NCBI GenBank assembly: GCA_021736945.1
Contig: JAIPEX010000002.1
Location: 7,486-71,485 of the forward strand
DNA length: 64,000 bases
Direction of reading: 5' to 3'
From: Halanaerobiales bacterium
GTDB lineage: Bacteria > Bacillota > Halanaerobiia > Halanaerobiales > M55B127
Both the position numbers and the translations under genes were made by a program. Positions 35,492-56,149 of this stretch are shown here, piece after piece. The notes beneath the pieces were generated by a model. It was not told the origin of the DNA, searched no databases, and saw nothing but the letters and a program-made list of their open reading frames with translations. Position 1 is the first letter of the stretch. Each line of letters starts with the position of its first letter.

Positions 35492-35557
35492 ATTCTAACA
35501 CCTTTCTATTTTTCAAAAGCAATTATACTTAATTTTAACACAGTTACTACCTATTTA

Positions 35558-37864
35558 TCAATTTAAATATCCATTAATATTATACTTGTGACCATCAGTT
35601 TTAATAATAACAGCACCATTATGATCGGTTCTCCAAATGCGGATATTATTATCAATTAAACGTTTTAAAACATTTTTACTTGGGTGGCCGTACTCATTTG
35701 ATCCAACACTTATTATCGCTTCTTTAGGAGCAACTGCTTTTATAAATTCATCTGTACTTGAAGTTTCACTCCCATGATGAGCTACTTTTAATATATCAGA
35801 TTTTAATTTATTTTGGTCTACTAATTTTAAGATTATTTCTTCTGCTTTTTCTTCTAAATCACCAGTAAATAACATTTCAAAATCTTTATAAGTTAATTTG
35901 AAAGCTACAGAATAATTATTTCTATTTTTAAAAACAATATTTTCTAAAGGAGCCATAAATTTTAATTTTATATTATTTAGAGATAAGATATCTTGATTAT
36001 CTGTCCAATATACTCTTATATTTTTATTCATGGCAGCTTCTATTGTCTTTTTAGCATAATTTTGTGTAAAATCATATTGTTTAGATATTATCAAATTTTT
36101 TATAAATCCTTTCTTAATTAAATATTCAGTTCCAGCACTATGGTCTCCATCAAAATGTGTAACTATATGATAATCTATCATTTTAATGTTTTGATTCAAT
36201 AAAAAGGGTATGATAGTTTTTTCTGCTTTACTTCCAGTAAGTGTTGAACTACCAGTGTCCACTAATATTGTTTGCCCATCTGGTATTTTTATAACTATTG
36301 AATCTCCTTGGCCTACATCTAAACAATAAATCTCTAATAAATTGTTATTTGTGGGCCGAATAATAATTGTAAAAATAAAAATAATTAATAATATTGTACT
36401 TAAAATTTTAAAAATATTAATCTTAATAGATTTCATATTATCTTTATTTCTAATAATATAGGCAACAAGAAAAAGAATAATATAATATATAAAAACAGTA
36501 GCAATAGAAGGAGTAGTCACTTTAATTTCAGCTGAAGGTAATTTTGACATGACTTTAATACCTTTATTTAAAAATACAGTCGTTAAATAGATCAATTGTC
36601 CCGTGAAATTACTTAAAAATGGAAATATAAGATAAAAAACGAAATGGGTTAATGTTAAAAATACAATAACAGATACTAAAGGAATTGCCCATAAATTAGT
36701 TATTACTCCTGCCGGTGATATTGTGTTAAAATAATATGCAGTTAGAGGAATTGAACCTAGTTGGGCTGCAAGACTAACAGCTAGAGATGTATGTAAATAC
36801 CTTTCGAAAATTTTAGTCCAACTTACTATCATTAATAATACAAGAAAACTAAGCTGTAGCCCAACTGAAAATAATTTATAAGGGTCTAACAACAAAATTA
36901 TAAATAACACAATAGAAATTATAGTAAAAAAATCAACTTTTAAATTAATTTGTTTAAAATACCTAAAAAATAAAACTAATAAAGATGCTCTCAAAACAGA
37001 AGCTCTAAATCCTGTCATAATTACATATATTAAAAGAAAAAAAGTTAAAATTATATTTATTATTTTACTACTAAAAGAAAAAGGTTTTAATAAAAATATA
37101 ATGAATAATGTTATAAAACCAATATGTAATCCAGAAATTGCTAACAGATGATTAGCTCCAGCCCTTCTAAAACTTGTTTCCCAGCTTTTATTTAAATTAC
37201 TTTTTTCGCCTAAAATTAATGCTTTTATGAACTCATTGACCGGGGGTATTATTTTTTTATCTATTGATCCTAGTAAAAATCTTTTTATCTTTATAATAGG
37301 TTTTGTTAATAAAATATGATTTTGAATTTTATATATTTCAAAAACATTTCCTACACTATAAATTTTTTTCTTTTTTAGATATTTAAAATAGGAAAATCCA
37401 CCTGGATTACTGGCTTTTTGTGGTTTATTCAATTTCATTCTTGCAATTACTAAATCTCCATGTTCTATATTATTGTTTAAATCACTTTTCCATAATTGAA
37501 TGTTCCCGTATTTGATTCTTTTATTATCTACTAAAATTGGTTTTAAAATAACAGAATTGCCTTCTACAGAATCCAATTTAATCTTAATTTTTCCAACTAC
37601 CTCTATTATTCTATTATTATAATTATTAATCGAATTAATACTATAATAATTCATCTGAAAATATAACATATAAAAAAAGCCAAACAAAAATATAATTATA
37701 AATATATAAATAACTATTTTTTTGTTTTTAGTTAAAGTTATAATTATTAATAATATAATTCCTGTTATTAGTAACACTAATTTGTAATTTATAAAGAAAT
37801 ATCCGCTGATAATACCAAGTATAAATATTATGACAGCTATTATAATATTTTTATTCAACTTCAA
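35558..37864 (-). CDS. comEC: DNA internalization channel ComEC/Rec2
   Basis: A polytopic competence domain is followed by a C-terminal metallo-beta-lactamase domain (HFDGDHSAG, VAHHGS). Confidence 0.85.
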   Translation of the reverse strand: MKLNKNIIIAVIIFILGIISGYFFINYKLVLLITGIILLIIITLTKNKKIVIYIFIIIFLFGFFYMLYFQMNYYSINSINNYNNRIIEVVGKIKIKLDSVEGNSVILKPILVDNKRIKYGNIQLWKSDLNNNIEHGDLVIARMKLNKPQKASNPGGFSYFKYLKKKKIYSVGNVFEIYKIQNHILLTKPIIKIKRFLLGSIDKKIIPPVNEFIKALILGEKSNLNKSWETSFRRAGANHLLAISGLHIGFITLFIIFLLKPFSFSSKIINIILTFFLLIYVIMTGFRASVLRASLLVLFFRYFKQINLKVDFFTIISIVLFIILLLDPYKLFSVGLQLSFLVLLMIVSWTKIFERYLHTSLAVSLAAQLGSIPLTAYYFNTISPAGVITNLWAIPLVSVIVFLTLTHFVFYLIFPFLSNFTGQLIYLTTVFLNKGIKVMSKLPSAEIKVTTPSIATVFIYYIILFLVAYIIRNKDNMKSIKINIFKILSTILLIIFIFTIIIRPTNNNLLEIYCLDVGQGDSIVIKIPDGQTILVDTGSSTLTGSKAEKTIIPFLLNQNIKMIDYHIVTHFDGDHSAGTEYLIKKGFIKNLIISKQYDFTQNYAKKTIEAAMNKNIRVYWTDNQDILSLNNIKLKFMAPLENIVFKNRNNYSVAFKLTYKDFEMLFTGDLEEKAEEIILKLVDQNKLKSDILKVAHHGSETSSTDEFIKAVAPKEAIISVGSNEYGHPSKNVLKRLIDNNIRIWRTDHNGAVIIKTDGHKYNINGYLN

Positions 37865-42998: not shown

Positions 42999-45497
42999 TT
43001 ATTTCACAACTATATTCACTAATTTTTTTGGTATAACTATTGTCTTTACAATCTCTTTGTCCTTAGTATATTTTTGGACTTTATCCTGCTTAAATACTTT
43101 TTCTTTCAATGCTTCTTCTGAAATATTAGCATCAACATCTACTCTGTCTCGTACCCTACCATTGATTTGGATTACAATAGTAATTTCATCTTTTTTAGCC
43201 GCTTCTTCCTCAAATTCTGGCCAATCAGCCCGGTGTATACTACTTTCGTGGCCGATCTTATGCCAAAGCTCTTCTGTCATATGTGGAGCAAACGGAGCCA
43301 GCATCAATAATATTTTTTCAGTAACAAAAGCAAGCAATTCTTCATTAAGTTGGTTTTTATTATCTGCAAGATAACTATATAGTTCATTGACTAATTCCAT
43401 TATAGCACTTATAGCAGTATTAAAGTTTAATCTTTCTGAAACATCTTCAGTAACTTTTTGAATTGTTTCATGAAGCTTTCTATGAAGTTCTTTTTCATCT
43501 TCATTTAAATTATCTTGGTCAATATTAATTTTGTTAACATCAACTTTTTTTATTGAGTTAATGTTTTCGGCAACAAATCTCCATACTCGGTTTAAAAATC
43601 TATTTGCACCTTCAACTCCTGCTTCACTCCATTCTAAATCTTTTTCAGGGGGAGAAGCAAAAAGGATAAATAACCGCGCTGTATCTGCTCCATATTCATC
43701 AAGAATTCGGCTTGGATCTACAACATTACCTTTTGACTTAGACATCTTATCTCCGTCTTTAAGAACCATGCCCTGTGCTAACCATTTTGTAAATGGTTCA
43801 CCTTCTTCTAATAGGTTTAGATCTCTTAGTACTTTTGTAAAGAATCTAGCATAAAGAAGGTGTAATATAGCATGTTCTATACCTCCTATATATTGATCCA
43901 CTGGGAACCAATCGTCTGCACTTTCAGGAGAAAATGGAAGATTTTTATTATGAGGATCAATGTATCTTAAGAAATACCAAGAAGAATCAACAAAGGTATC
44001 CATTGTATCAATTTCTCTTTTAGCATTCCCACCACATTTCGGACATGTTGTATTTACAAAGTCTTCCGCTTTAGCTAATGGTGAGATTCCTGTTGCTGAA
44101 AATTCAACATCGTTTGGTAATAAAACCGGTAAATCCTTTTCATCTACAGGGACAGTACCACATTGGTCACAATATACAATAGGAATTGGTGCACCCCAAT
44201 ATCTTTGCCTAGATATCAACCAATCTCTTAGTCGATAATTAGTCTCTCTTTTACCAATATTTTTTTCTTCCATTTCTTCAGCAATTTTTTCAAAAGCTTC
44301 CTCTACATTTAATCCATTATATTTATTTGAATTGATTAAATATCCTTCTTCACTATATGCTTCTTCCATTTTTGAACCATCAAGTTTTTCTTCTTTATCA
44401 TGGGGTTGGATCACTGCTTTTATAGGGAGATCATATTTTTTTGCAAAATCAAAGTCGCGCTGATCATGAGCAGGGACTGCCATGATTGCTCCTGTACCAT
44501 ACTCCATTAAAACATAATTTGCAATTAAAATAGGTATTTCTTCTCCAGTCATCGGATTAGTAGCGTAACTACCTGTATATATACCCTCTTTTTCAGTTTC
44601 AGGTGAAGTTCTTTCAACATCTTCCTGATTTTTTACCTTTTTTATGAAATTTCTTATCTCTTTTTCATTTTCTTTCCCACTTATTAATTCATCTACATAA
44701 GGATGTTCTGGAGATAATACCATATAAGTAGCCCCATAGATTGTATCAGGACGAGTCGTAAATACTTCTAGATCTTTATCAATTTCTTCAATTGGGAAAT
44801 TTATGCTCATCCCTTCACTTCTACCAATCCAATTTTTCTGCATTGTTTTAACTCTTTCCGGCCAATCAAGCTCTTCATGCCCCTCCAGTAATTCATCCGC
44901 ATACTCAGTTATCTTTAAAAACCATTGTTCTAACTCTTTTTGCTCTACCAATGTGTCACAACGCTCACATCGATTATTAACAACCTGTTCATTTGCTAAA
45001 ACTGTATCACAGCTTGGACACCAATTAACAGGTTGTTCTTTTTTATATGCAAGGTCATTTTCAAACATTTTTATGAAAAACCACTGAGTCCATTTATAAT
45101 AATCCGGTTCTGCAGTAGCAACTTCACGATCCCAATCATAACTAAGACCCATAGCCTTCATTTGTTTTTTCATACTTTCAATATTCTCCCAAGTCCACTC
45201 TCTGGGATGAATATTACCATGTTTTATTGCTGCATTTTCGGCAGGTAAGCCAAATGCATCCCAACCCATAGGATGTAGGACATTAAATCCTTCCATTCTC
45301 TTAAAACGTGCAATTACATCTCCTATAGAATATACTCTTACATGTCCCATATGTAATTTTCCTGAGGGATAAGGAAACATCTCTAAGACATAATAATTAT
45401 CTTTTTCATCTTTATTTTTTGCCTTATACAGTCTTTTTTCATCCCAAACTTTCTGCCATTTTTTTTCAATCTCTTCAAAATCATAATGATTCTGCAT
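42999..45497 (-). CDS. leuS: leucine--tRNA ligase
   Basis: HIGH motif (HMGHVRVY), KMSKS, and CP1 editing domain with zinc cysteines. 832 aa. Confidence 0.97.
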
Positions 45498-45529
45498 TCC
45501 ATACTCCTCCTTAATATATAATTTTTGGA

Positions 45530-45782
45530 TTTAAAATAAAAAAACTCCTCCCGGTCAAGGGACGAGTTGTTTACCCGTGGTACCACCCTAATAGATAGTA
45601 ATAATCCACTTATAAAAAGTTAACGCCTTTATTACGATACTGTCTAATCTAAAGTTCAACAGTATGGACTCCAGAACGAGTTCAATATCCTACAATATTG
45701 CTTTCCAGCTGCCAGCAACTCTCTTTGTAAGTGTAAAATATTTACTACTTTCCTTCATAGTCCACTAATTTTATTCATCTTT
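45530..45782 (-). promoter_or_regulatory. T-box riboswitch leader, leucine (CUC specifier), controlling leuS
   Basis: Read on the minus strand:
- The Stem I base is GGACU.../...AGUCC.
- AGUA and AGAGAG boxes are present.
- The specifier loop is UUGAA-CUC-G.
- The conserved T-box is UAGGGUGGUACCACGGG (45574..45588).
- The terminator is CUCGUCCC-uugacc-GGGAGGAG, followed by a U7 run. Confidence 0.85.
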
Positions 45783-45788
45783 GTAAAA

Positions 45789-45817
45789 ATTATATTAATT
45801 TATACTGTTAAAGTCAA
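45789..45817 (-). promoter_or_regulatory. sigma-A promoter of the leuS T-box leader
   Basis: On the minus strand, TTGACT-17 nt-TATAAT. The -35 box overlaps the rsfS stop codon. Confidence 0.6.
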
Positions 45818-46176
45818 GAAGTTTCTTCTTTTTTCAAAATCTTTTGAGCGTCTGCCCAAAGTCTATCAAGTTCATAATACTCACGTTCTCTTTTATGGAA
45901 TACATGTACAATTATATCAGCATAATCCATAAGAATCCAACGTCCATTATCCTTACCAGCAATCTGTTTTGGATAAATACCCTCTTCATCTAGTTTTTCT
46001 TCAACCGCTCTGGCAATAGCTTGAACTTGTTTATCTGTATTCCCAGAACATAAAACAAAATAATCTGCTATTATAGTCAGGCCTTTTACATTTAATATTT
46101 CTATATCAAAAGCCTTTTTATCATCGGCTGCTTCTGCTGCTAATTCAGCCATTCTCTTATAATTTTCTTCTGCCAT
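45814..46176 (-). CDS. rsfS: ribosome silencing factor RsfS
   Basis: Iojap/RsfS pattern: K.A.DI..L.V...T.IADYFVLCSG....QV.AIA, W.L.DY.D..VH.F....R.YY.LE.LW. Confidence 0.9.
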   Translation of the reverse strand: MAEENYKRMAELAAEAADDKKAFDIEILNVKGLTIIADYFVLCSGNTDKQVQAIARAVEEKLDEEGIYPKQIAGKDNGRWILMDYADIIVHVFHKREREYYELDRLWADAQKILKKEETS

Positions 46177-47354
46177 TAATTTTGTTCCTCCTTTTTTGCT
46201 ATTACATTATTTGTGAAATTTTCACCTAATATCACCTGAAAGTCTTCCTCTATATCTTCAGATTCTTCTAATTTACCACCTAAAACATTTTTTAGTCCTT
46301 CGGCAGTATCTTTTTTACCCGGCTTGTAATAAATTATTGTCTCTTGATAATTAAAATTATCTGCATTACTAATATCTTCTATATTAAAACCATATTTCTC
46401 TAACTCTTCACCCACTTCACTCGCTAAACCAGAAATACCGTTCCCATTTAAGATTGTAACATAATATTGATCATTTTGTATATATTCTTTACTTCTTATT
46501 AAATTATTAACCATAATCTCTAAACTTTCTTCATTAGCTATCCAGTAACTTGCACCATTTATATACTCTGGTTTCCCAGGCACCATTTCAGTTTTCAAAT
46601 TATTTAAATCAGCTTTCTTTGCTAATTTTACAAAAGGAGATACATCTTTAATAGGTATATTAGTATTTACTGAATTCATTACTTCATTATAAATAGAAGG
46701 TAAATTCAATATTACATTAGAAGAGGTTGCTTTTTTCATTACAGCTTCGATAAACTTTTGTTGCCGTGATACTCTACCAATATCTCCTAATTTATCTCCC
46801 CTATATCTTACATACTGTAAAGCTTTTTCGCCATTTAAGTGAACATCACCTGCGGGCAGATTTATGTTTACATCACCAGCTTCATCTACATATCTCAACG
46901 GTTTACTAATATGAATATTTATTCCACCTATTAAATCAATAATCTCCTCAAAACCTTGAAAATCTGTTTCTAAATAATAATCTAATTTAATATTTAAAAA
47001 ATCCTCAACAGTTTCATTTAAAAGTTCTATTCCGCCATAAGCATGGGCAGAATTTATTCTATTATAGCCATGACCGTTTATTTTCACCCTGGTATCGCGA
47101 GGAATAAATAATAATCCTATCTTATTTGTATTTAAATTAATGCTAGCCACGATAATTGTATCAGCTCTCGGTGGCCCATTTATGGAAGAATCATAACCAG
47201 CTACTAAAACATTTAATTTTGTTTTTCTAAAAGGATTCAAATCCAAAAGACTAAAATTATCATTAAACAATATATATAAGGACAATGATACAATAATTAT
47301 TAATAATATTAATACAATTGTCTTCCATTTAGACCATGCCATTTTTTCAAGCAT
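46176..47354 (-). CDS. LytR-CpsA-Psr (LCP) family cell-envelope phosphotransferase
   Basis: N-terminal TM helix, LCP core (NVLVAGYDS...RADTIIVASIN...LFIPRDT) and a C-terminal LytR_C-like domain. Confidence 0.85.
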   Translation of the reverse strand: MLEKMAWSKWKTIVLILLIIIVSLSLYILFNDNFSLLDLNPFRKTKLNVLVAGYDSSINGPPRADTIIVASINLNTNKIGLLFIPRDTRVKINGHGYNRINSAHAYGGIELLNETVEDFLNIKLDYYLETDFQGFEEIIDLIGGINIHISKPLRYVDEAGDVNINLPAGDVHLNGEKALQYVRYRGDKLGDIGRVSRQQKFIEAVMKKATSSNVILNLPSIYNEVMNSVNTNIPIKDVSPFVKLAKKADLNNLKTEMVPGKPEYINGASYWIANEESLEIMVNNLIRSKEYIQNDQYYVTILNGNGISGLASEVGEELEKYGFNIEDISNADNFNYQETIIYYKPGKKDTAEGLKNVLGGKLEESEDIEEDFQVILGENFTNNVIAKKEEQN

Positions 47355-47930
47355 TTAATATTCTCCCTTCAACAATGAATTCCTGGTTAAAAGCGTATTA
47401 GGATGTATAATTCTTCTTCGTTCTATGTTGTATTTTATGGTAAAATCACAGACAAGTATAACTGCTTTATCTATATCTGTTTTAGTTTTTTCTCTTATTT
47501 GCTCAACACCAGGAAATTTTCTATTCGGTTCAATAACATCTGCAACAAATATAATTTTTTCTATAAGGCTCATATTAGGCCGACCAATAGTATGGTATCT
47601 TATTGCGTTAATTATTTGTGGATCCTTTACTTCAAAATCTTTTTTTGCTAAAAAAGCTCCTACCGGGGAGTGTAATAAAGCAGGTAATTCTTTTTCCAAA
47701 TCATCTATTTCAATATTATTATTTTCTACAATCTTTAAAAGTTTTTCATTATCAAAATTTCTTGCATAGTCATGTAGTAAACCAGCAATTTTAACTTTAG
47801 TTATATCAGCTTCATACTTTTTAGCTATCTCAACAGCAGCTCTAACTACTGATAAAGTATGCTCTTTTCTAAAATTTTCTTTACTATTCAATTCTTTTTT
47901 TATAATATTTATATTTTTCATGAACTTCAC
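47355..47930 (-). CDS. yqeK: HD-domain bis(5-nucleosyl)-tetraphosphatase YqeK
   Basis: HD motif (HTLSV...LLHDYAR). The position immediately after nadD matches other Firmicutes. Confidence 0.8.
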   Translation of the reverse strand: MKFMKNINIIKKELNSKENFRKEHTLSVVRAAVEIAKKYEADITKVKIAGLLHDYARNFDNEKLLKIVENNNIEIDDLEKELPALLHSPVGAFLAKKDFEVKDPQIINAIRYHTIGRPNMSLIEKIIFVADVIEPNRKFPGVEQIREKTKTDIDKAVILVCDFTIKYNIERRRIIHPNTLLTRNSLLKGEY

Positions 47931-48524
47931 CTATCTATATAAATTATTGGATTTAATATAATCAATCACTTCTTTAGGGGTTAAATATTTTATGGATTTC
48001 CCTTCATTTACATATTCTCTAATCATTGTGGAGGATATTTCTACTAAAGAATTATTTAATATATTTATATTATCCTCATATTTCCTTAGTCTCTGGTCCT
48101 TCATAATATTAGTAAAAGAATAATCCAATCTTTTAGCAACTATTAGATTAGAGTTATCAAGTATATAATCTGGTTTATGCCAATTGAAAATTTCTGACAA
48201 AGAATCAGTTCCTATAATTAAATTAACTTTTTCAACTTGATATTTTTCTTTAAAATGATCTATAGTATGAACAGTGTAAGATTTTCCTTCCTTTTTAATC
48301 TCCCAATCTGATATTTCAAAATGGTTATTATCTTCCAAGGCTAATTTAAGCATATTCAATCTATGTTCCGGACTATTAATTTTATTTTCTTCTTTATGTG
48401 GTGGCTTACCTGCAGGCATAAAAATAACCTTATCCAGATTAAATTCCAGATAGGCTTGTTCAGCACATATTAAATGTCCTAGATGGACCGGATTAAATGT
48501 ACCACCAATTATTGCAAATTCCAT
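47931..48524 (-). CDS. nadD: nicotinate-nucleotide adenylyltransferase
   Basis: GGTFNPVHLGH and ISST.IR motifs. I trimmed the start to the Met at 48524 (AAGGTGG SD). The ORF-track start at 48581 adds an implausible hydrophobic leader. Confidence 0.9.
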   Translation of the reverse strand: MEFAIIGGTFNPVHLGHLICAEQAYLEFNLDKVIFMPAGKPPHKEENKINSPEHRLNMLKLALEDNNHFEISDWEIKKEGKSYTVHTIDHFKEKYQVEKVNLIIGTDSLSEIFNWHKPDYILDNSNLIVAKRLDYSFTNIMKDQRLRKYEDNINILNNSLVEISSTMIREYVNEGKSIKYLTPKEVIDYIKSNNLYR

Positions 48525-48652
48525 ATTTTCCACCTTCCATTTAACTGTTTTAATTATAATAAATATATTTACTATATTCAAGTAAATATGTAAACTAAGA
48601 AGGATTAAAAGTTTTTGTGTAGAAATAAAATTATATATAGGAGGTAATTACT

Positions 48653-49165
48653 ATGTTATATAAATATAAAAATATAAAACCTGAAGTTGATGAAACTTCT
48701 TTTATAGCACCAGGCGCTAAGCTAATTGGAAATATTAAACTAAAAGAAAATACTAGCATATGGTACAATACTGTCTTAAGATCAGACTTAAATAAAACTA
48801 TTTTAGGTAAAGGTACTAACATTCAAGAAAACTCAGCATTACATGTAGATACTGATAAACCTTTAACTATTGGTGATTATGTAACAGTAGGACATAATGC
48901 CACAATTCATGGATGTACCATTAAAGATAATTGCTTAATAGGAATGGGGGCAATTATTTTAAATGGAGCAGTTATTAATCAAAATTCAATCGTAGCAGCA
49001 GGTAGTCTTGTTACTGAAAATGCAGAATTCCCATCTGGTTCATTAATAATGGGAACTCCGGCCAAGGTAATCAGAGATTTAACCGAAAATGAAATTAAAG
49101 AAATTCAAGAGTCAGCAGATCATTATATAAGTTTGGCTAAAGAACACAAAAATAGTTTGAAATAA
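48653..49165 (+). CDS. gamma-class carbonic anhydrase-like / left-handed beta-helix (hexapeptide) protein
   Basis: Typical YrdA/PaaY-like N-terminus (Y....P.VDE.SFIAPGA.LIGNI.L.E..SIWYN.VLR.D) with His ligand positions. Confidence 0.8.
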   Translation: MLYKYKNIKPEVDETSFIAPGAKLIGNIKLKENTSIWYNTVLRSDLNKTILGKGTNIQENSALHVDTDKPLTIGDYVTVGHNATIHGCTIKDNCLIGMGAIILNGAVINQNSIVAAGSLVTENAEFPSGSLIMGTPAKVIRDLTENEIKEIQESADHYISLAKEHKNSLK

Positions 49166-49171
49166 AAAAGT

Positions 49172-49210
49172 CCCTGCTTAATGGATTAATTTTTAATCCA
49201 TTTGGCAGGG
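49172..49210. terminator. bidirectional terminator between convergent genes
   Basis: A long composite hairpin, CCCTGC..AATGGATTAA-ttt-TTAATCCATT..GCAGGG, with flanking A- and T-runs. Confidence 0.7.
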
Positions 49211-49226
49211 ATTCTGTCTTTTATAA

Positions 49227-49724
49227 TTAGAAAGGTTCAAAACTTTGTTCAGCCCACCAGTCCTCTTTAAGCATTTCATATTGTTCTTGGAAAAAATTCA
49301 AATGCTGATATTCCCATTTAATAATTCTTTCATATAATTCTTTAGCCTTTTCTGATTTAGTATTATTAACAGCGTTCTTATAATAATCAATTGCTTCTTT
49401 TTCCATTTTAACACCAATTCCAAAAACAGATAATGAAAAAGACAAATTTTCTTTTTCTATCTTATCCCACTTAAATATTCTGGGCTTTTCCGGTGGCTTC
49501 ATTTCATCAACTGAAAATTCTATCTCTCCACCATCTTCCAAGCTTTCATAAAGTTCCTTAAGCCAATCAATATGCTTTAATTCTTCATTTGCTAATTTTT
49601 TAAAGGATTTGCTGATCTCCTCTTCTTCTATCCTATTAGCTGCCATATTATAAACCTGGTAACCCTCATTTTCATTTAAAATAGCTTCTTTAATCACTTC
49701 TAATTCTTTATTGGACATTTTCAA
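49227..49724 (-). CDS. ferritin-like / rubrerythrin-family diiron protein (no rubredoxin domain)
   Basis: Two E...E..H four-helix-bundle motifs (NEELKHIDW and KWEYQHLNFF, each with an upstream Glu). Confidence 0.7.
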   Translation of the reverse strand: MKMSNKELEVIKEAILNENEGYQVYNMAANRIEEEEISKSFKKLANEELKHIDWLKELYESLEDGGEIEFSVDEMKPPEKPRIFKWDKIEKENLSFSLSVFGIGVKMEKEAIDYYKNAVNNTKSEKAKELYERIIKWEYQHLNFFQEQYEMLKEDWWAEQSFEPF

Positions 49725-49878
49725 GCCCCCTTCTATTTTATTATTCTACAATCATCAATTGAATATGTAAACATTATTTATTATATATAATTAGATTTTG
49801 ACTATATATTTTAAATTATATCCTAGGTCAAATATATCAGATCAGGTCCCTATTTTCAAGTAAGTTAAGTTGTTAAAA

Positions 49879-49907
49879 TTGACATATATTTCAAAATAAA
49901 ATATAAT
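49879..49907 (+). promoter_or_regulatory. sigma-A promoter of the hutP-like gene
   Basis: Consensus TTGACA-17 nt-TATAAT. The GAGGAGG SD and the ATG at 49939 lie downstream. Confidence 0.6.
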
Positions 49908-49938
49908 TAAAGAAAATTCATGTGAGGAGGCTTACATA

Positions 49939-50349
49939 ATGGAAAAAAGCCTTATTATAGCTAAAGCCGCTTTAAAACTAGCAATTTCAGACCGGCAAGA
50001 AGAAAACAAATTAAAAAAACAATTCTTAGATGATGAGGGAATAAAATCCGCAGCTCTTGATTTTGGAGGAGAATACAATAAATCTGTAAAAAAAATTATT
50101 GAAAATGCAGTAATTGCAGCTCGTAGAGAAAATTTAATCAATGAGACTCACTCCAATCAGGGTGCTGTGGCTGGTGCTGCTCATGAAGCTTTAAAACAAA
50201 TCATGGGAAGTGCAGTAGGCTTAAATATTGGTGGTAAAATTGGAATTGCTCGAAAAGACGACCACTTAGTTGTTGCTATCTTTTTTGGAGTTGGCATGTT
50301 AAATTTAAATGAAGTAGCAGTTGGACTCAGCCACAGAACTATTACCTAA
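49939..50349 (+). CDS. HutP-family RNA-binding antiterminator homologue
   Basis: 136 aa. It aligns by eye along its whole length with B. subtilis HutP as I remember it: DDEGIKSAALDFGGEY vs ERDGWKVCLGKVGSM, GAVAGAAHEALKQI vs HALYHATMEALHGV, and the C-terminal EVAVGLSHRTI vs HETFGVGINHI. Confidence 0.7.
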   Translation: MEKSLIIAKAALKLAISDRQEENKLKKQFLDDEGIKSAALDFGGEYNKSVKKIIENAVIAARRENLINETHSNQGAVAGAAHEALKQIMGSAVGLNIGGKIGIARKDDHLVVAIFFGVGMLNLNEVAVGLSHRTIT

Positions 50350-50364
50350 ATATAATTTAAATTC

Positions 50365-50393
50365 TTGACATTCTTAGTTATTATATGTATAAT
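50365..50393 (+). promoter_or_regulatory. strong sigma-A promoter (extended -10) of the ABC transporter leader
   Basis: TTGACA (50365..50370), 17 nt spacer, TG-n-TATAAT (-10 hexamer at 50388..50393). Confidence 0.7.
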
Positions 50394-50409
50394 GATAAAA
50401 ATCGAAAAT

Positions 50410-50433
50410 TGGTAATATGGTAATATGGTAGGA
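50410..50433 (+). repeat. three tandem 8-nt direct repeats in the leader RNA (TGGTAATA TGGTAATA TGGTAGGA)
   Basis: I read these directly from the sequence, about 10 nt downstream of the predicted transcription start. They are a candidate binding site for a protein with threefold symmetry. Confidence 0.8.
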
Positions 50434-50472
50434 GAAAATAATTAGGAAATCTCTATGGATTTCTATGTCTTT

Positions 50473-50500
50473 AAACACTCCTTCCCGGAGTGTTTTTTTT
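50473..50500 (+). terminator. intrinsic terminator (attenuator) in the ABC transporter leader
   Basis: AAACACTCC-ttccc-GGAGTGTTT forms 9 bp and is followed by a T run that extends the 3-prime arm through 50500. It lies between the promoter and the SBP start codon. Confidence 0.8.
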
Positions 50501-50549
50501 ATTTCTCTTTCCAAAACCAAATCCACAAAAAAATAAGGAGAGATGTAAA

Positions 50550-51542
50550 ATGGTAATTAATGGTAAGAAATCTCTAATTGTAGTATCTATTCTCATTTCT
50601 GTAACTCTATTCTGTTTGGTAACTTTTCAGCACTCAGCTCAGGCACAAGACAAGGTATTTAAAATTGGAATCTCACAATTCGTAGAACACCCTGCTTTAG
50701 ATTCAGCTAGGAAAGGTTTTATCGAAGGTCTTAACGAAGCTGGTTTTATTGAAGGTGAAAACCTTGAAATAAATCTTGAAAATGCCCAAGCTGACATGTC
50801 TACTACTCAAACAATTGCACAAAAATTTGAAAATCAAAATTTAGACCTAGTTTTGGCTATTGCTACTCCTAATGCCCAAGCTGCTGCTGGCACTCTTTCT
50901 GATACACCACTGGTTATTACAGCTGTAACAGATCCGGTAGCTGCAGGTTTAGTTAAAGACCTTGTTGATAAGGAAAATGCAATTACTGGAACTACTGATA
51001 TGAATCCAGTTGGAAAACAACTTGAATTAATAAAGGAATTTTTACCTAACGCTAAAAACATAGGTATTTTATATAATAGTGGTGAGGTTAATTCAAAAGT
51101 ACAAGTTGATATTGCAAAGCAAATCGCACCAGAAAAAAATATTAAAATAATTGAAGCTACTGCTACTAATACTAGTGAAGTTTCATTAGCAACTTCATCC
51201 TTAATAGGTAAGGTAGATGCTATTTATTTACCCACGGACAATACAATCGCTTCTGCTGTGCCCTCAATAATGAAAATTGCCAAGAAAAATAATATACCAG
51301 TCTTTGCTTCCGAAAAAGGACAAGTTCAAAACGGCGCTATAGCTACTAGAGGGTTAGATTACTTTTTGCTAGGTAAACAAACAGGGCAAATTGCGGCACG
51401 AGTTTTAAATGGCGAAAAACCAGCATCAATACCTATTACAGGTTCTAAAAACCTTCAATTAATTATAAACGAAGAAGCTATTAATAGTTTCAATTTAGAA
51501 ATTCCTGAAAGTATAAAAGATGAAATAGAAATCCGATTATAA
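50550..51542 (+). CDS. ABC transporter substrate-binding protein, ABC_sub_bind (PF04392-like) family
   Basis: A signal peptide ends AQA-QD. The motifs FKIGISQFVEHPALDSARKGF..GL...G...G.N and DLVLAIATPNAQAA follow. The start is at the ATG at 50550 with an AAGGAG SD. The ORF-track start (50490) lies inside the terminator. Confidence 0.85.
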   Translation: MVINGKKSLIVVSILISVTLFCLVTFQHSAQAQDKVFKIGISQFVEHPALDSARKGFIEGLNEAGFIEGENLEINLENAQADMSTTQTIAQKFENQNLDLVLAIATPNAQAAAGTLSDTPLVITAVTDPVAAGLVKDLVDKENAITGTTDMNPVGKQLELIKEFLPNAKNIGILYNSGEVNSKVQVDIAKQIAPEKNIKIIEATATNTSEVSLATSSLIGKVDAIYLPTDNTIASAVPSIMKIAKKNNIPVFASEKGQVQNGAIATRGLDYFLLGKQTGQIAARVLNGEKPASIPITGSKNLQLIINEEAINSFNLEIPESIKDEIEIRL

Positions 51543-51576
51543 ATTAAGTAATAGACAAAATATTGGAGGGATTGAC

Positions 51577-52467
51577 ATGTCTTTCGGTTTTTTAATTACT
51601 TCACTAGAACAGGGATTAATATATGGAATAATGGCAATAGGAGTTTATATAACATTTAGAGTACTAGATTTTGCAGACTTAACTGTAGACGGCAGCATTA
51701 CTTTAGGGGCTGCCGTTTCCTCCAGGCTCATAATAATGGGTTATAATCCATTTTTAACACTAATTGTTGCTACAGTAGCTGGAGGTATCTCGGGCTCTTT
51801 TACTGGCTTTTTAAATACAAAATTAAAAATAGCACCATTATTATCGGGAATTTTAACTATGACTTCCTTGTTTTCAATTAACTTAAGAATTATGGGCAGA
51901 CCAAATATACCTTTGTTATCTGATGATACAATTTTTGATATATTCAATGTACCACTTTCTCTCTCATCTTCCAGTGAACTAATATTAATATTAATTGTAG
52001 TTTTATTAGTATTAATCTCACTAGTTTTATTTTTAAAAACAAAACTAGGATTTGCACTACGTGCAACAGGTGACAATCCTGCTATGGTTAGAAGTATGGC
52101 TATAAATACAAAAAGTATAAAGATGATTGGTTTAATAATAGCTAATAGTTTTGTTGCATTATCTGGTGCTTTAATCTGTCAGTATCAAGGCTTTGCTGAT
52201 ATAAGTATGGGAATCGGTACAATAATTGCCGGATTGGCTTCTGTAATCATTGGTGAGGTTATTTTTGGTAGTGAAAAACTATATTTTGTAATTCCTGGTA
52301 TTATAGGTGGCTCAATTTTATATCGAGGTAGTATTTCATTTGCTTTAATGAGTGGTTTTGCTGCTTCAGATTTAAAACTATTAACAGCACTTATTGTAAT
52401 TGTTTTTCTTTCAACCCCAAAAATTAAATCAGCAGTAGGAGGTAAGTTTAATGTTAAAGCTAATTAA
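51577..52467 (+). CDS. ABC transporter permease (BPD_transp_2-type, partner of the PF04392 SBP)
   Basis: Polytopic membrane protein with the N-terminus LEQGLIYGIMAIGVYITFRVLDFADLTVDGS, which is typical of this transporter family. Confidence 0.85.
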   Translation: MSFGFLITSLEQGLIYGIMAIGVYITFRVLDFADLTVDGSITLGAAVSSRLIIMGYNPFLTLIVATVAGGISGSFTGFLNTKLKIAPLLSGILTMTSLFSINLRIMGRPNIPLLSDDTIFDIFNVPLSLSSSSELILILIVVLLVLISLVLFLKTKLGFALRATGDNPAMVRSMAINTKSIKMIGLIIANSFVALSGALICQYQGFADISMGIGTIIAGLASVIIGEVIFGSEKLYFVIPGIIGGSILYRGSISFALMSGFAASDLKLLTALIVIVFLSTPKIKSAVGGKFNVKAN

Positions 52468-53251
52468 TGTAAGTAAAACTTTTAACCAAAATACAGTTAA
52501 TGAAACAAAAGCTTTAAAAGAAATCGATCTTAAAGTAAAAAACAATGATTTTATTACAATTGTAGGAGGAAATGGGGCCGGTAAGTCTACCCTTTTAAAT
52601 AGTATTGCAGGAGTTTTTGGATTAACTAAAGGAAAAATTATTTTATCAAATAAAGATATTACAAATATACCAGAATATAAGAGAGCAAAATTTATTGGAA
52701 GAGTATTCCAGGATCCCTTAATGGGAACTTCTCCTGAAATGACAATTGAAGAAAACCTATCAATGGCCTTAAATAAAAATTCCAAATTAACATTAAAATG
52801 GGCTCTAAATAAAAAGAAACGGAAAAAAATAAAACAACATTTGTCTGAAATTGATTTAGGTTTAGAAGATAGATTAGATACTAAAGTAAAACTTTTATCC
52901 GGAGGCCAGAGACAGGCTCTTACTCTTTTGATGGCTACTATAATTGAACCCGAATTATTATTACTAGATGAACATACTGCTGCTTTAGATCCGGCTACTG
53001 CCATAAAAATTAAAGATTTAACACAGCAAATTATTTCCAAACATAATATCACCACTTTGATGATCACCCATGATATGAAAGATGCCTTGAAATTTGGAAA
53101 TAGAATGCTAATGATGAATCATGGAGATATAATTATTGATATACAGGGTAAGACTAAAGAAAAAATGACAATAGATCATCTTTTAAAAATATTCCAGAAA
53201 AAAAATAAAAAAGGCTTTTATAATGATAGATCAATATTAAGTTTAGCCTAA
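52451..53251 (+). CDS. ABC transporter ATP-binding protein
   Basis: Walker A GGNGAGKST, signature LSGGQRQ, Walker B LLLLDEH, and an H-loop. Confidence 0.9.
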   Translation: MLKLINVSKTFNQNTVNETKALKEIDLKVKNNDFITIVGGNGAGKSTLLNSIAGVFGLTKGKIILSNKDITNIPEYKRAKFIGRVFQDPLMGTSPEMTIEENLSMALNKNSKLTLKWALNKKKRKKIKQHLSEIDLGLEDRLDTKVKLLSGGQRQALTLLMATIIEPELLLLDEHTAALDPATAIKIKDLTQQIISKHNITTLMITHDMKDALKFGNRMLMMNHGDIIIDIQGKTKEKMTIDHLLKIFQKKNKKGFYNDRSILSLA

Positions 53252-54931
53252 TTTAAATACTAAACTTTCATATGGTCTTAAATTTAAGATTTGATTATTT
53301 AAAATAATATCTTTATAATTTGAAATTAATAATTTTACTTCTTTGGTCTTAATATTAATTGGTATTTCTACTGATAATTCTTGCTCAAAGAAGTTTAATA
53401 TAATCAAATATTTTTCATTTTTATACTCTCTAATATATAAAAAAACAGATTCATGATCTTCTAATAAAGGTTTATATTTGCCATATATTAAACCTATATT
53501 ATTTTTTCTTATCTTAATAATATTTTTATAATAATTATAAATTGAATCAGAATCATTAATAGATTTTTCTACATTTATTTCTTTGTAATTTGAATTCACA
53601 TTAATCCAGGGAGTACTTTGTGTAAAACCTGCATTTAATTCATCATTCCACTGCATAGGTGTTCTTGCATTATCTCTACTGACTCTCTGAATCTCTTTCA
53701 TAACTTCATCTTTAGCTTTTCCTTTATTTATCTCAATTCTGTAATGATTTATTGTTTCAACATCTCTATATTTACCTATGTCATTAAAAGCTACATTTGT
53801 CATCCCTATTTCTTCTCCCTGATAAATATATGGAGTACCAGGCATTGTCATCATCATTGTTGCCAACATCTTCGCAGACTCTACCCTATATTCCTCATCA
53901 TTTCCGAACCTAGAAACTATTCTAGGTTGGTCATGATTGCCTAAATAAATAGCGTTCCAGCCTGATTTATATAAACCGTGGTTCCATTTTTTATATATTT
54001 TTTTTATTTCCTTTAAATCTATTTCTTCTTTAATCCATTTACTTTCATCGTTCCGATCAACTGACATTAATTCAAAATGAAAAACCATATCTAATAATTC
54101 TTTTCCGTTAACTTCGGAAAATTTTTTTGCATTTTCAACTCCAAAATTTAATGTCTCACCTACAGTCATAATGTCATAGTCAAATAATACTTCTTCTCCC
54201 ATTTCTTTAATATATTCATATAAACGTGGCCCATTAAGAAAGTAAGGCTTTCCATCCCCATAATCTTCATCAGGATCCTTTTCACCATCAGGAAAGTTCT
54301 GATTTTTTGAAATCATATTTATTACATCCATTCTAAATCCATCAATCCCTTTATTTAGCCACCATCTCATCATATTATAAATTTTAGCTCTCACTTCTTG
54401 GTTTTCCCAATTTAAGTCAGGTTGTTTTTCATCAAACAAATGCAAATAATATTCATCAGTTTTTTTATCATAAGTCCAGGTAGACCCTCCAAAAAAAGAT
54501 TCCCAGTTTGTAGGTGGTTTGTTATTATTGTCTTTCCCTTTTTCCCATATATAATAATCTCGGTATTCATTTTCTAAAGAACTACTGGATTTTATAAACC
54601 ATTCATGTTCATCAGAAGTATGATTAACTACTAAGTCAAAAATTACCTTCATATCCCTCTTATGAATTTCTTCAATTAACCTTTCTACATCCTCTAAATC
54701 ACCAAAATCATCCATAATAGCTTGGTAATCACTTATATCATATCCGTTATCAGCATTTGGAGATTTATATATAGGACAAAGCCAAATTACATCTATTCCT
54801 AAATCTTTAACATAATCCAATTTTTCTATTATACCCGGTATATCTCCTATACCATCTTGATTACTATCATTAAAACTCCTAGGATATATTTGATATACTA
54901 CTGCTTCCTTCCACCACCTATTATTTACCAT
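53243..54931 (-). CDS. GH13 oligo-1,6-glucosidase / alpha-glucosidase (subfamily 31-like)
   Basis: Motifs: WWKEAVVYQIYPRSF, DLVVNHTS, GFRMDVI, VGET, YLGNHDQPR. Confidence 0.9.
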   Translation of the reverse strand: MVNNRWWKEAVVYQIYPRSFNDSNQDGIGDIPGIIEKLDYVKDLGIDVIWLCPIYKSPNADNGYDISDYQAIMDDFGDLEDVERLIEEIHKRDMKVIFDLVVNHTSDEHEWFIKSSSSLENEYRDYYIWEKGKDNNNKPPTNWESFFGGSTWTYDKKTDEYYLHLFDEKQPDLNWENQEVRAKIYNMMRWWLNKGIDGFRMDVINMISKNQNFPDGEKDPDEDYGDGKPYFLNGPRLYEYIKEMGEEVLFDYDIMTVGETLNFGVENAKKFSEVNGKELLDMVFHFELMSVDRNDESKWIKEEIDLKEIKKIYKKWNHGLYKSGWNAIYLGNHDQPRIVSRFGNDEEYRVESAKMLATMMMTMPGTPYIYQGEEIGMTNVAFNDIGKYRDVETINHYRIEINKGKAKDEVMKEIQRVSRDNARTPMQWNDELNAGFTQSTPWINVNSNYKEINVEKSINDSDSIYNYYKNIIKIRKNNIGLIYGKYKPLLEDHESVFLYIREYKNEKYLIILNFFEQELSVEIPINIKTKEVKLLISNYKDIILNNQILNLRPYESLVFKLG

Positions 54932-55122
54932 AAACTTATCATCCTTTCATTAGACTGATTATTTATGATTTTATATCTTTAAATGATAATTGTAAAATCT
55001 AGCACTTTAAAATATTAAAAATTAATTATGCTTTTATTTAAAAAATATTTTTAATATTTTATATTTTTGCAGGAATATAGCTTTTCATATTGAAATATAA
55101 AAATAGAATGAAATGGTTTTCA

Positions 55123-55134
55123 GAAAACGTTTTC
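55123..55134. promoter_or_regulatory. LacI/CcpA-type operator palindrome (cre-like)
   Basis: The perfect 12-bp palindrome GAAAACGTTTTC lies 20 nt upstream of the LacI-family gene, in the divergent region shared with the GH13 gene. Confidence 0.5.
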
Positions 55135-55153
55135 ATTTTAAAGGGGAGTTAAT

Positions 55154-56149
55154 ATGAATACAACTATGAAAGATGTAGCAAAAAAGGCAAATGTATCTTT
55201 ATCAACAGTTTCAAGAGTAATTAACAATAGTAACCTAGTAAGTAAAGATACAGCTATAAAGGTTAGAAAAGCCATTAAAGAATTAGATTATCAAATTAAT
55301 GAATCCGCCCGGGCTTTACGCACCAATATTAGTAAACTAATTGGCGTAATTGTTGCAGGTATGGATAATCCCTTTTTGATGAAAGTTCTTAAAAGTATAG
55401 AAACTGAAGCCATTAAGGAAAATTATAATATTATTTATGGTGATTCAGAAGGAGAATTAGAACAAGAACTATATTATATAAATATGTTTCAACAAAAAAA
55501 GATTGATGGACTAGTGGTTATGACAGCTAAATTTAGTGATGAACTCATTAAATATATAAAAGAAAGTAATATTCCTACTGTCTTTGCCTCAGGACATTTA
55601 AAACAATCTGACCTCCCCTCTGTTACTGTAAACAATGTTAAAGCTGCAGAAGATGTAAGTGAATATCTTTTTGGATTGGATGATTATTTTGGTATAATAC
55701 GAGGCCCTTATCGTGATTCAGTAGCAAGTGAAGAACGAATGCAGGGAGTAATAAATAAATATAAAGAAAAAAATGTTCCATTAAAGAAAAAATATATTTC
55801 TGAAGGTGATTTTACATTCAAAAGTGGTTACAAAGCTGCTAAAATTTTAATTGATAAAAATAAAGATATCTCTTCTATTTTTGCTTTTAATGATCAAATG
55901 GCAGTGGGTGCAATTAAATATTGCATAGATAATAATATTAAAGTTCCAGATCAAATCTCCATTATTGGTTTTGATGATATTGAAGCTGCTAAATATGCAA
56001 ATCCTTCCTTAAGCACCGTATATCAGTCTGGAACTAAGCTTGGTATCGAAATAATGAATATTTTATTAAAAGAAATTAATGGTACTCAATTCACAAAGAA
56101 AAATGTTTTTATTCCACATGATTTGATTATTAGAGAAAGTAGTAAATAA
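55154..56149 (+). CDS. LacI-family transcriptional regulator
   Basis: N-terminal HTH (MKDVAKKANVSLSTVSRVINN) and a periplasmic-binding-protein-like sugar-binding core. Confidence 0.9.
   Translation: MNTTMKDVAKKANVSLSTVSRVINNSNLVSKDTAIKVRKAIKELDYQINESARALRTNISKLIGVIVAGMDNPFLMKVLKSIETEAIKENYNIIYGDSEGELEQELYYINMFQQKKIDGLVVMTAKFSDELIKYIKESNIPTVFASGHLKQSDLPSVTVNNVKAAEDVSEYLFGLDDYFGIIRGPYRDSVASEERMQGVINKYKEKNVPLKKKYISEGDFTFKSGYKAAKILIDKNKDISSIFAFNDQMAVGAIKYCIDNNIKVPDQISIIGFDDIEAAKYANPSLSTVYQSGTKLGIEIMNILLKEINGTQFTKKNVFIPHDLIIRESSK

Follow-up and report, generated by a model that had tools for sequence, protein, structure and literature searches.

A gene for a 136-aa protein of the HutP family lies on a 64,000-nt stretch of genomic DNA from a Halanaerobiales bacterium (contig JAIPEX010000002.1, assembly GCA_021736945.1), here called the window, immediately 5′ of a leader that combines three GGYA units with an intrinsic terminator and precedes an ABC transporter operon (Table 1). 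A preliminary description of this DNA took the gene for an orphan hutP homologue that might control the adjacent transporter leader in response to a ligand other than L-histidine. The protein, the RNA element and the genes that accompany them in related genomes point to a regulon of aromatic amino-acid synthesis and uptake.

The hutP-like gene and the leader of the transporter operon

The resemblance to HutP on which the preliminary description relied extends from end to end. Pfam PF09021 (HutP) is the sole Pfam match of the 136-aa protein (E=1.2e-44; 152 bits, with a cut-off of 25 bits), and residues 7–133 span positions 1–128 of the 128-position profile, against which B. subtilis HutP itself scores 111 bits. 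An AlphaFold2 monomer model, computed with 26 homologues as input, reaches a mean pLDDT of 90.9 and has the HutP fold, a four-stranded antiparallel sheet packed by helices. On comparison of this model with the PDB by Foldseek, the 11 best matches are all HutP (1vea, 1wmq, 1wpv, 4ok9, 4h4l, 1wrn), at TM scores of 0.65–0.77, a best E of 2.4e-7 and identities of 16–22%, and both profile search and structure prediction return HutP. The gene has a GAGGAGG ribosome site 8 nt upstream (49924..49930), and the consensus promoter of its own that had been ascribed to it is found as a match at every position. Orthologues of 87–98% identity occur with the same synteny in L001–L006, L116 and L145.

A second consensus promoter follows the hutP-like gene, and the TTGACA/TATAAT pair recurs at the same place in orthologous leaders when these are read by eye; the transporter transcript probably starts near 50400. 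About 10 nt 3′ of this promoter stands the repeat block, in which GGTA starts at 50411, 50419 and 50427, giving an exact period of 8 nt. It is the only site to score at least 11/12 on either strand of the 64-kb window. The third unit, GGUAGGAG, is able to base-pair with the terminator 5′ arm and loop (CUCCUUCC), giving a proposed antiterminator, and the segment beyond the terminator, ATTTCTCTTTCC, is complementary to GGUAGGAGAAA of the repeat block and also to the ribosome site of the next gene. Unlike hut mRNA, the window leader showed no further repeat block within or beside its terminator, and a search of 48000..56000 with Rfam models at E≤1 returned neither a T-box nor a riboswitch nor any other family.

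In agreement with the preliminary description, the regulator gene adjoins an ABC transporter operon and not hutHUIG, as the downstream genes encode a PF04392 binding protein, a BPD_transp_2 permease and an ABC ATPase. For the binding protein, the ATG at 50550 is taken as the true start, as it is preceded by AAGGAGAG, whereas the GTG at 50490 chosen by the ORF tool falls inside the terminator; the PF04392 match starts at residue 38 counted from 50550. TrpX (NF041285) is the sole NCBIfam match of this protein, at 315.6 bits under an equivalog cut-off of 390, which leaves its substrate uncertain, and it is best described as a TrpX relative of uncertain specificity. A two-codon ATG-TAA occupies 50543..50548, between the ribosome site and ATG 50550. 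The coding start that follows (ATGGTAATTAATGGTAAG, 50550..50567) adds a further pair of GGTAA units, spaced 10 nt, across the start codon; this pair is kept in L001–L006 and not in Halanaerobium, and could be a weak extra binding site or a coding coincidence.

Downstream of the hutP-like stop codon (50349), the first terminator to appear in the scan is that of the leader, so transcripts from the hutP-like promoter are also expected to enter the transporter leader. The hutP-like mRNA should therefore bear the repeat block in its 3′ untranslated region and end at the regulated terminator, and feedback on the regulator's own mRNA would thus be possible.

The wider gene order, namely nadD, hexapeptide transferase, rubrerythrin, hutP-like, trpXYZ-like, GH13 amylase and lacI-type regulator (window 47931..56149), is kept in the related Halanaerobiales metagenome-assembled genomes (MAGs) L002, L003 and L005; the amylase gene is convergent and overlaps the end of the ATPase gene by 9 nt. 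The large ORFs of the window are housekeeping genes (dnaG, ppdK, glyS, dnaK/J, hrcA, lepA, holA, comEC, leuS) and sugar-utilisation genes. The earlier statement that the window holds no hut genes stands for its 25 ORFs of at least 330 aa, in which no hut enzyme domain (histidase, urocanase, imidazolonepropionase) is present; shorter ORFs were scanned only in 44000..56000, and a HutG-sized gene elsewhere in the window is still possible.

Table 1. Coordinates of the regulator gene, the transporter leader and the transporter genes in the window.
Feature	Position	Strand	Basis
Putative promoter of the hutP-like gene, TTGACA-17 nt-TATAAT	49879..49907	+	consensus scan, 12/12; sequence match alone
hutP-like gene, 136 aa, predicted hexameric RNA-binding regulator of the GAVAG clade	49939..50349	+	ORF, ATG start
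Promoter of the transporter operon, TTGACA-17 nt-TATAAT	50365..50393	+	consensus scan, 12/12
Predicted protein-binding site, TGGTAATA TGGTAATA TGGTAGGAG	50410..50434	+	sequence pattern
Small leader hairpin, GGAAATC-tctat-GGATTTC	50445..50463	+	RNA folds; kept only in closest relatives
Intrinsic terminator, AAACACTCC-ttccc-GGAGTGTTT and T run	50473..50503 (hairpin 50473..50495)	+	terminator scan
ATTTCTCTTTCC, proposed anti-Shine-Dalgarno (anti-SD)/anti-anti-SD switch, 3′ of the terminator	50501..50512	+	full-length RNA folds
Ribosome site AAGGAGAG and likely true ATG (50550) of the TrpX-like gene	50535..50552	+	sequence reading
TrpX-like ABC substrate-binding protein, predicted regulated target	50550..51542	+	PF04392, 290 bits
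ABC permease, BPD_transp_2	51577..52467	+	Pfam
ABC ATPase, start overlapping the end of the permease gene	52451..53251	+	Pfam

Distance from HutP proper and gene neighbourhoods of the clade

The likeness to HutP is one of family and fold only. HutP in the PDB was reached neither by phmmer with the window protein nor by hmmsearch with a 26-sequence clade profile, even at E≤10, and profile–profile and fold comparison were therefore needed. Against 18 Bacillaceae HutPs, the profile–profile comparison gave a colinear alignment (E=2.9e-4) with a probability of only 41%, which makes the mapping of residues between the two proteins provisional; the B. subtilis HutP sequence used is identical to that of PDB 1VEA. 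In this provisional alignment His73 and His77 of HutP, which are invariant among the 18 Bacillaceae proteins and which we take to be its Mg/L-His ligands, correspond to Gly75 and Gly79 of the window protein, both of them invariant and contained in an invariant GAVAG motif of its clade. Arg88 is replaced by Gly90, at a position that varies between Gly, Asp, Pro and Ser in the clade, and the two loops that follow are shorter than those of HutP by 5 and 8 residues; Glu81 is retained as Glu83. His138, likewise invariant among the 18 Bacillaceae proteins and, according to Kumarevel et al. in 2005, reportedly a metal ligand together with His73 and His77, lies in a region outside the profile alignment, where the by-eye registers tried yield no His. 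To the question, raised in the preliminary description, of whether the histidine- and metal-binding residues of HutP are conserved, the alignment provisionally answers that the two histidines are not. The window protein would thus have lost the ligand residues, and provisionally the L-histidine/Mg2+ pocket, of HutP proper; a ligand other than histidine, as had been supposed, is probable in view of the two invariant glycines. The protein is thus a member of the HutP family without being orthologous to HutP itself.

Its own branch of the HutP fold is a large and uncharacterised clade of more than 2,546 clusters at 90% identity, with members in Halanaerobiales, Peptococcaceae, Syntrophomonadaceae, Desulfitobacteriaceae, heliobacteria, Moorella and Negativicutes. 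The clade outnumbers HutP proper, for which 768 such clusters are found among the matches listed and whose named members are all Bacillaceae and allied bacilli. The window gene is accordingly no one-off orphan, and the commonest neighbour of the clade's genes is an aroH-DAHP (3-deoxy-D-arabino-heptulosonate 7-phosphate) synthase-tyrA-aroA cluster.

The neighbourhoods of the 80 closest species-level genomic loci were surveyed, in which the regulators are 54–91% identical and the hutP-like coordinates of 12 loci come from tblastn. The gene directly 3′ of the hutP-like gene is aroH, encoding a type I chorismate mutase, in 50 of the 80, and 5 further loci have other aro genes at most 6 kb away (DAHP synthase, accompanied in two by tyrA and aroA). 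A TrpX-like ABC operon adjoins the hutP-like gene in 10 loci and is nearby in 3 more (422 nt downstream in L039, divergent in L013, 5 kb away in L007), all of them in Halanaerobiales. The usual order is HI0933-like oxidoreductase, 160-aa protein, hutP-like, aroH, DAHP synthase, tyrA, aroA, cmk, plsC and ispH/S1, with CM_1, DAHP_synth_1 with FXD, PDH with ACT and EPSP synthase confirmed by Pfam. In Candidatus Frackibacter, a member of Halanaerobiales, independent gene calls with precomputed Pfam assignments give HutP, CM_1, aminotransferase, DAHP synthase, PDH and EPSP synthase. The identified neighbours in the 80 loci are aroH, DAHP synthase, tyrA, aroA, cmk and trpX-like, and no hut gene is among them, with many rarer neighbour clusters left unannotated.

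Some further features of these neighbourhoods may be recorded. The ~160-aa protein, which has a hydrophobic N-terminus and no Pfam match, is encoded directly 5′ of the hutP-like gene in 37 loci and usually follows the HI0933-like flavoprotein (e.g. L009, L012, L014, L035). In the Halanaerobiaceae MAG with the divergent TrpX-like operon (L013:5638..6000), no repeat block of at least 11/12 was detected in the locus, the leader of which was not closely inspected. In Sporomusa aerivorans (L189:7001..7426), an orphan hutP-like gene adjoins comEA-comEC-holA; holA and comEC are found in the window as well (34490..37864), ~12 kb 5′ of the hutP-like gene, and this proximity may be a remnant of an older chromosomal neighbourhood.

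A GGYA repeat of 8-nt period in leaders and at ribosome sites

The repeat block of the window leader (GGTA-4 nt-GGTA-4 nt-GGTAGG) and the terminator are kept in all Halanaerobiales leaders, separated by a spacer that varies from 9 to 162 nt. The terminator reads CACTCC...GGAGTG with a T run in 33 of 34 distinct leaders and CACTTCC...GGAAGTG in the remaining one, and the block is conserved across relatives of 54–98% protein identity as the flanking sequence diverges. When the 80 loci are searched for strict GGYA-N4-GGYA-N4-GGYA, 15 matches fall within 260 nt 3′ of hutP-like genes, and the other 1.67 Mb, counted on both strands, holds 8. All but one of these 8, at six sites, are found 100–230 nt 5′ of a hutP-like gene or precede by 19 nt a 337-aa ORF, which is taken by size and position as DAHP synthase. 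Repeat periods of 6, 7, 9 and 10 nt give zero matches near hutP-like genes. At a score of at least 11/12, a sense-strand site flanks the hutP-like gene in 25 of the 80 loci compared with none of 80 antisense controls, and at a score of at least 10 in 35 compared with 5; the strand bias of the repeat sites is 47 to 6.

The position of the element differs between lineages. In Desulfosporosinus, Desulfitobacterium, Pelotomaculum and others, a leader 5′ of the hutP-like gene carries the units, with a terminator after them, whereas Syntrophomonas-type loci have the three units across the aroH ribosome site and first codons, as exemplified by AGGTAGGATGGTAGTATGGTAGTAAGG of L035, where the ATG forms part of unit 3. 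Overlap of the units with the aroH ribosome site is found in at least 6 loci.

Starting from DNA alone, public metagenome contigs were scanned for TGGTANNATGGTANNANGGTAGG, which yielded 106 matches. About 70 of these are without any leader features, and many of the 41 intergenic matches examined were discarded as simple GGTAGGAT tandem repeats. The remaining matches are leaders with a terminator, mostly before hutP-like/trpX-like pairs, of which ~30 were recovered, and several are unlinked to a hutP-like gene. Among the linked ones is a leader of five units and a terminator before the Frackibacter hutP-like-aroH-DAHP synthase-tyrA-aroA cluster (L131), with a regulator 100% identical to P0052. 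The trpX-like operon of L093, with terminator CACTTCC/GGAAGTG, has no hutP-like gene nearby; L100 carries four units and a terminator before an AroG-type DAHP synthase; and L115 has a repeat leader before DAHP synthase-tyrA. On the fetched stretches of L100 and L115 no hutP-like gene was detected, and these leaders are evidence for a regulator acting in trans. The L100 DAHP synthase is without an FXD domain, and the L115 enzyme is assigned to the type of an FXD-bearing cluster representative, to which it is 62% identical. Taken together, the unlinked leaders and the linked loci indicate that the element is the mark of an aromatic amino-acid regulon, which takes in two kinds of DAHP synthase, chorismate mutase, tyrA and aroA as well as importers, and that the hutP-like gene is its regular companion.

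It is of note for L100:6844..6960 and L115:7394..7470 that both come from sample Ga0209643, with different DAHP synthase genes that each have a repeat-plus-terminator leader. A repeat leader was also found before a DctP-family solute receptor: in L134:999..1140 (Ga0209347_1018535) a triple repeat, TGGTAGTATGGTAGGATGGTAGG, is followed by hairpins with T runs and then by the DctP-family TRAP-T receptor and a small membrane protein. This receptor may be another importer of the regulon.

Proposed repression of aromatic amino-acid genes and competing explanations

Control of the adjacent transporter leader by the hutP-like protein, as the preliminary description proposed, is very probable given the conserved promoter, the triple repeat and the intrinsic terminator. 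The best reading of its nature, to which we give a probability of roughly 0.6, is that of a ligand-activated RNA-binding repressor of aromatic amino-acid genes that acts in the manner of TRAP; binding, sign and ligand are what we infer here. HutP proper is a homohexamer with two RNA-binding faces, and the regulator is presumed to be a hexamer likewise. A face of the HutP hexamer reads three evenly spaced units, at U498, U505 and U512 with a period of 7 (PMC2425495), and this precedent, together with the co-occurrence of gene and element, suggests that the hutP-like protein binds the GGYA repeats.

The ligand-loaded regulator would bind single-stranded RNA at three GGYA(G/A) units exactly 8 nt apart. 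In the window, binding at 50410..50434 would sequester the third unit, which when free would pair with the terminator 5′ arm and loop as antiterminator, and also with the pyrimidine segment 50501..50512, which if not so engaged would cover the ribosome site. In the presence of ligand, the 50473..50495 terminator would form and read-through transcripts would carry a masked ribosome site, turning the importer off; without ligand, the importer would be on. In other Clostridia, the same protein–repeat pair would control hutP-like-aroH-DAHP synthase-tyrA-aroA, either through a terminator-bearing leader 5′ of these genes or by direct occupation of the aroH ribosome site.

RNA folds are in part consistent with such a switch. 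When folds are cut before the terminator 3′ arm, 11 of 12 Halanaerobiales leaders have the last unit paired to the 5′ arm and loop (CUCC...CC), and perfect pairings between last unit and 5′ arm occur elsewhere (GGUAGGA:UCCUACC in L025, ACGGUG:CACCGU in L041). A second layer is suggested by leaders of the window type, where UUUCUCUUUCC can be set against GGUAGGAGAAA or against the ribosome site. The duplex between the window repeats and the post-terminator segment amounts to -16.8 kcal/mol, compared with -9.2 +/- 2.5 for shuffled sequences, a value that 3 of 300 shuffles attain. A comparable pairing of different sequence, UAACUGGUAG/CUACCAGUUA, is found in Halanaerobium, with CUACCAGUUA always directly 5′ of the ribosome site GAAAGGGG, whatever insertion follows the terminator. 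Complementarity between repeats and post-terminator segment thus has z = -3 to -4.4 in two lineages with different sequences, and control by such an anti-SD layer would resemble that of trpE translation by TRAP.

Several features favour repression: the units at the aroH ribosome site, where binding can only block initiation; the complementarity of the last repeat to the terminator 5′ arm, by which binding should favour termination; and the nature of the targets, an importer and biosynthetic genes, for which repression by end product is the norm. The streptococcal TrpXYZ tryptophan ABC importer is under Trp T-box control, and tryptophan limitation induces the TrpXYZ homologue of S. suis (PMC9382623), which also favours repression. 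The window operon has the same three-gene architecture as TrpXYZ; its leader is not a T-box according to Rfam, and a protein would take the place of tRNA in its control. An aromatic amino acid is the probable ligand, and from operon content (chorismate mutase, aminotransferase, DAHP synthase, tyrA and aroA, with no trp or pheA genes) tyrosine is our first guess, followed by phenylalanine or tryptophan.

Several observations weigh against a TRAP-like repressor. The antiterminator comprises 5–8 bp and is weakly above dinucleotide shuffles (Fisher p=0.036 over 15 lineages, most single cases having p>0.05), as G-rich repeats pair with C-rich arms even when shuffled; as its duplex is only marginally better than shuffles, the antiterminator is treated here as a putative structure. 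The anti-SD complementarity is not significant in L004, L093, L115 and L131. A site detectable by strict scoring is present in only 25–35 of the 80 loci, no homologue of the aro genes or TrpX occurs within 6 kb in L028, L029 and L049, and around the Sporomusa hutP-like gene no aro or transporter gene is present within 7 kb. As to the ligand, gene context allows no more than a guess, and for all clade members both the RNA binding of the regulator and its effect on expression are predictions. Transporters named HisXYZ, similar in name to TrpXYZ, are predicted for histidine (PMC9413887). Finally, HutP, the only characterised homologue, is an antiterminator, i.e. an activator (PMC2425495; PMC12591593).

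This last point also supports HutP-type antitermination, in which the ligand-bound protein would bind the leader, prevent the terminator at 50473..50495 and induce the transporter. A terminator does stand between the repeats and the gene, and the regulator gene lies just 5′ of it, as hutP does. Likenesses to HutP (B. subtilis; PDB 1VEA, 1WMQ, 3BOY) extend to Pfam family, fold and approximate size, and to the three short, evenly spaced, single-stranded units in a terminator-bearing leader that are predicted as target of the window protein. However, the HutP target consists of two blocks of three XAG units with a 7-nt period and a 17-nt linker, flanking a GC-rich terminator stem (PMC2425495), whereas the window RNA has one block of three GGYA units with an 8-nt period, 40 nt 5′ of a short terminator, neither flanking it nor inside it; across leaders this distance is 40–170 nt. 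Binding over the aroH ribosome site and start codon of relatives could only inhibit, and end-product repression of the targets and the complementarity of the last repeat count against antitermination as they count for repression. We therefore hold antitermination to be unlikely, and yet the strongest of the alternatives.

Slightly less probable is that the hutP-like gene is a mere syntenic neighbour and that the GGYA leader is sensed by another protein, a tRNA or a small molecule. Inherited gene order (HI0933, 160-aa gene, hutP-like, aro, cmk, plsC, ispH) could explain part of the adjacency, some hutP-like genes have no nearby site, and the motif leaders of L093, L100 and L115 have no hutP-like gene within the contig; unlinked sites of this kind are, however, expected of a trans-acting factor. 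Against a bystander stand the presence of the element beside hutP-like genes both in a transporter leader and at aro genes, two unrelated settings, and its spread over distant lineages, the fit of three evenly spaced short units to reading by a HutP-type hexamer face, and the lack of any known riboswitch or T-box in the Rfam search given above.

A circuit that still senses L-histidine, with the ABC system as a HisXYZ-type importer and a hut-like switch moved to uptake, is very improbable, even though it would accord with the family name and although we take HisXYZ to be homologous to TrpXYZ. The predicted HisXYZ* family of histidine ABC transporters does exist in Firmicutes, but Halanaerobium HisR regulons consist of the his operon and yuiF and hold no ABC system (PMC9413887). 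In addition, the histidine-to-glycine replacements, the lost Arg88 and the two loop deletions speak against histidine as ligand, TrpX is the sole NCBIfam match of the binding protein, and the same regulator and motif are found on aroH, DAHP synthase, tyrA and aroA. Least probable of all, and largely refuted by conservation, is a terminator that simply ends the hutP-like transcript behind chance or structural repeats: AT-rich genomes are rich in promoter- and repeat-like strings (26 promoter-like sites in the consensus scan against 25 expected) and no terminator intervenes before 50473, but a perfect, conserved promoter lies between gene and repeats, the block is unique in 64 kb and outlasts its flanks across relatives, and sense sites outnumber antisense sites 25 to 0.

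TRAP-like repression would set the window protein apart from HutP in several respects. In Bacillaceae, hutP is the first gene of hutPHUIGM, directly 5′ of hutH, whereas the window gene, which likewise lies immediately 5′ of a regulated leader, precedes a TrpX-like ABC operon, and many genomes place the regulator gene of its clade 3′ of its own attenuator. The regulon would be aromatic amino-acid synthesis and uptake in place of histidine catabolism, with repression as predicted sign in place of activation, so that in ligand pocket, gene context and RNA site architecture the protein appears to depart from HutP proper. TRAP (MtrB) is an amino-acid-activated oligomer that binds repeated G/UAG-like units in single-stranded RNA; on binding it withdraws the 5′ strand from an antiterminator that shares a few nucleotides with the terminator, and it blocks translation of other targets by covering ribosome sites and also controls the importer of its amino acid. 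Reading of repeated triplets is common to TRAP and HutP (PMC2425495). The likeness of the window protein to TRAP concerns proposed function only, with repeats over the antiterminator, an overlap predicted in the clade at a level weakly above chance, and over the ribosome sites of other targets, an overlap that is clear at aroH. In sequence and fold the two are unrelated, as the window protein is not of the TrpBP/MtrB family and matched HutP only, with no match to the 11-mer beta-wheel. Three units of 8-nt period contrast with the 9–11 units and 2–3-nt spacers of TRAP, and the genes targeted belong to the common and Tyr/Phe branches (DAHP synthase, chorismate mutase, tyrA, aroA) in place of trpEDCFBA. 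The preliminary description expected an extension of the HutP mechanism to a new regulon; the new regulon stands as a proposal, and the mode is more likely TRAP-like repression by attenuation and translation block, as suggested by the repeats over the aroH ribosome site and the last repeat's complementarity to the terminator.

Whether this amounts to a second, independently evolved TRAP, i.e. a HutP-fold attenuator and translational repressor, widespread in Clostridia, Halanaerobiales and their relatives, that is activated by an aromatic amino acid and reads GGYA triplets 8 nt apart, we judge to be evenly balanced. Its regulon would then, with the same even odds, comprise DAHP synthase, chorismate mutase, tyrA, aroA and the TrpX-like importer, the regulator gene often standing in its own attenuated operon. 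The chances are likewise about equal that the name 'HutP family' would fit only a minority Bacillaceae branch.

To our knowledge, regulation of the common and Tyr/Phe branches is poorly understood in most Clostridia and Halanaerobiales; we know of no use of TRAP in these groups, where T-boxes cover only some of the genes. In the full-text literature outside subscription journals, no paper was found that links HutP-family proteins to chorismate mutase or aromatic amino acids, or that deals with the role of HutP-family members other than those of Bacillus; a 2025 review treats HutP only in Bacillus, and a C. beijerinckii preprint merely lists hutP as down-regulated. The locus and its relatives supply a concrete candidate regulator, RNA site and regulon. 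If the proposal holds, thousands of 'hut operon positive regulator' names in databases would need correction, and a compact ligand–RNA–protein switch would become available for engineering in anaerobes. On the HutP scaffold, ligand, RNA spacing, regulon and sign would each have been re-tuned, and the unrelated folds of TRAP and HutP would have converged on the same solution.

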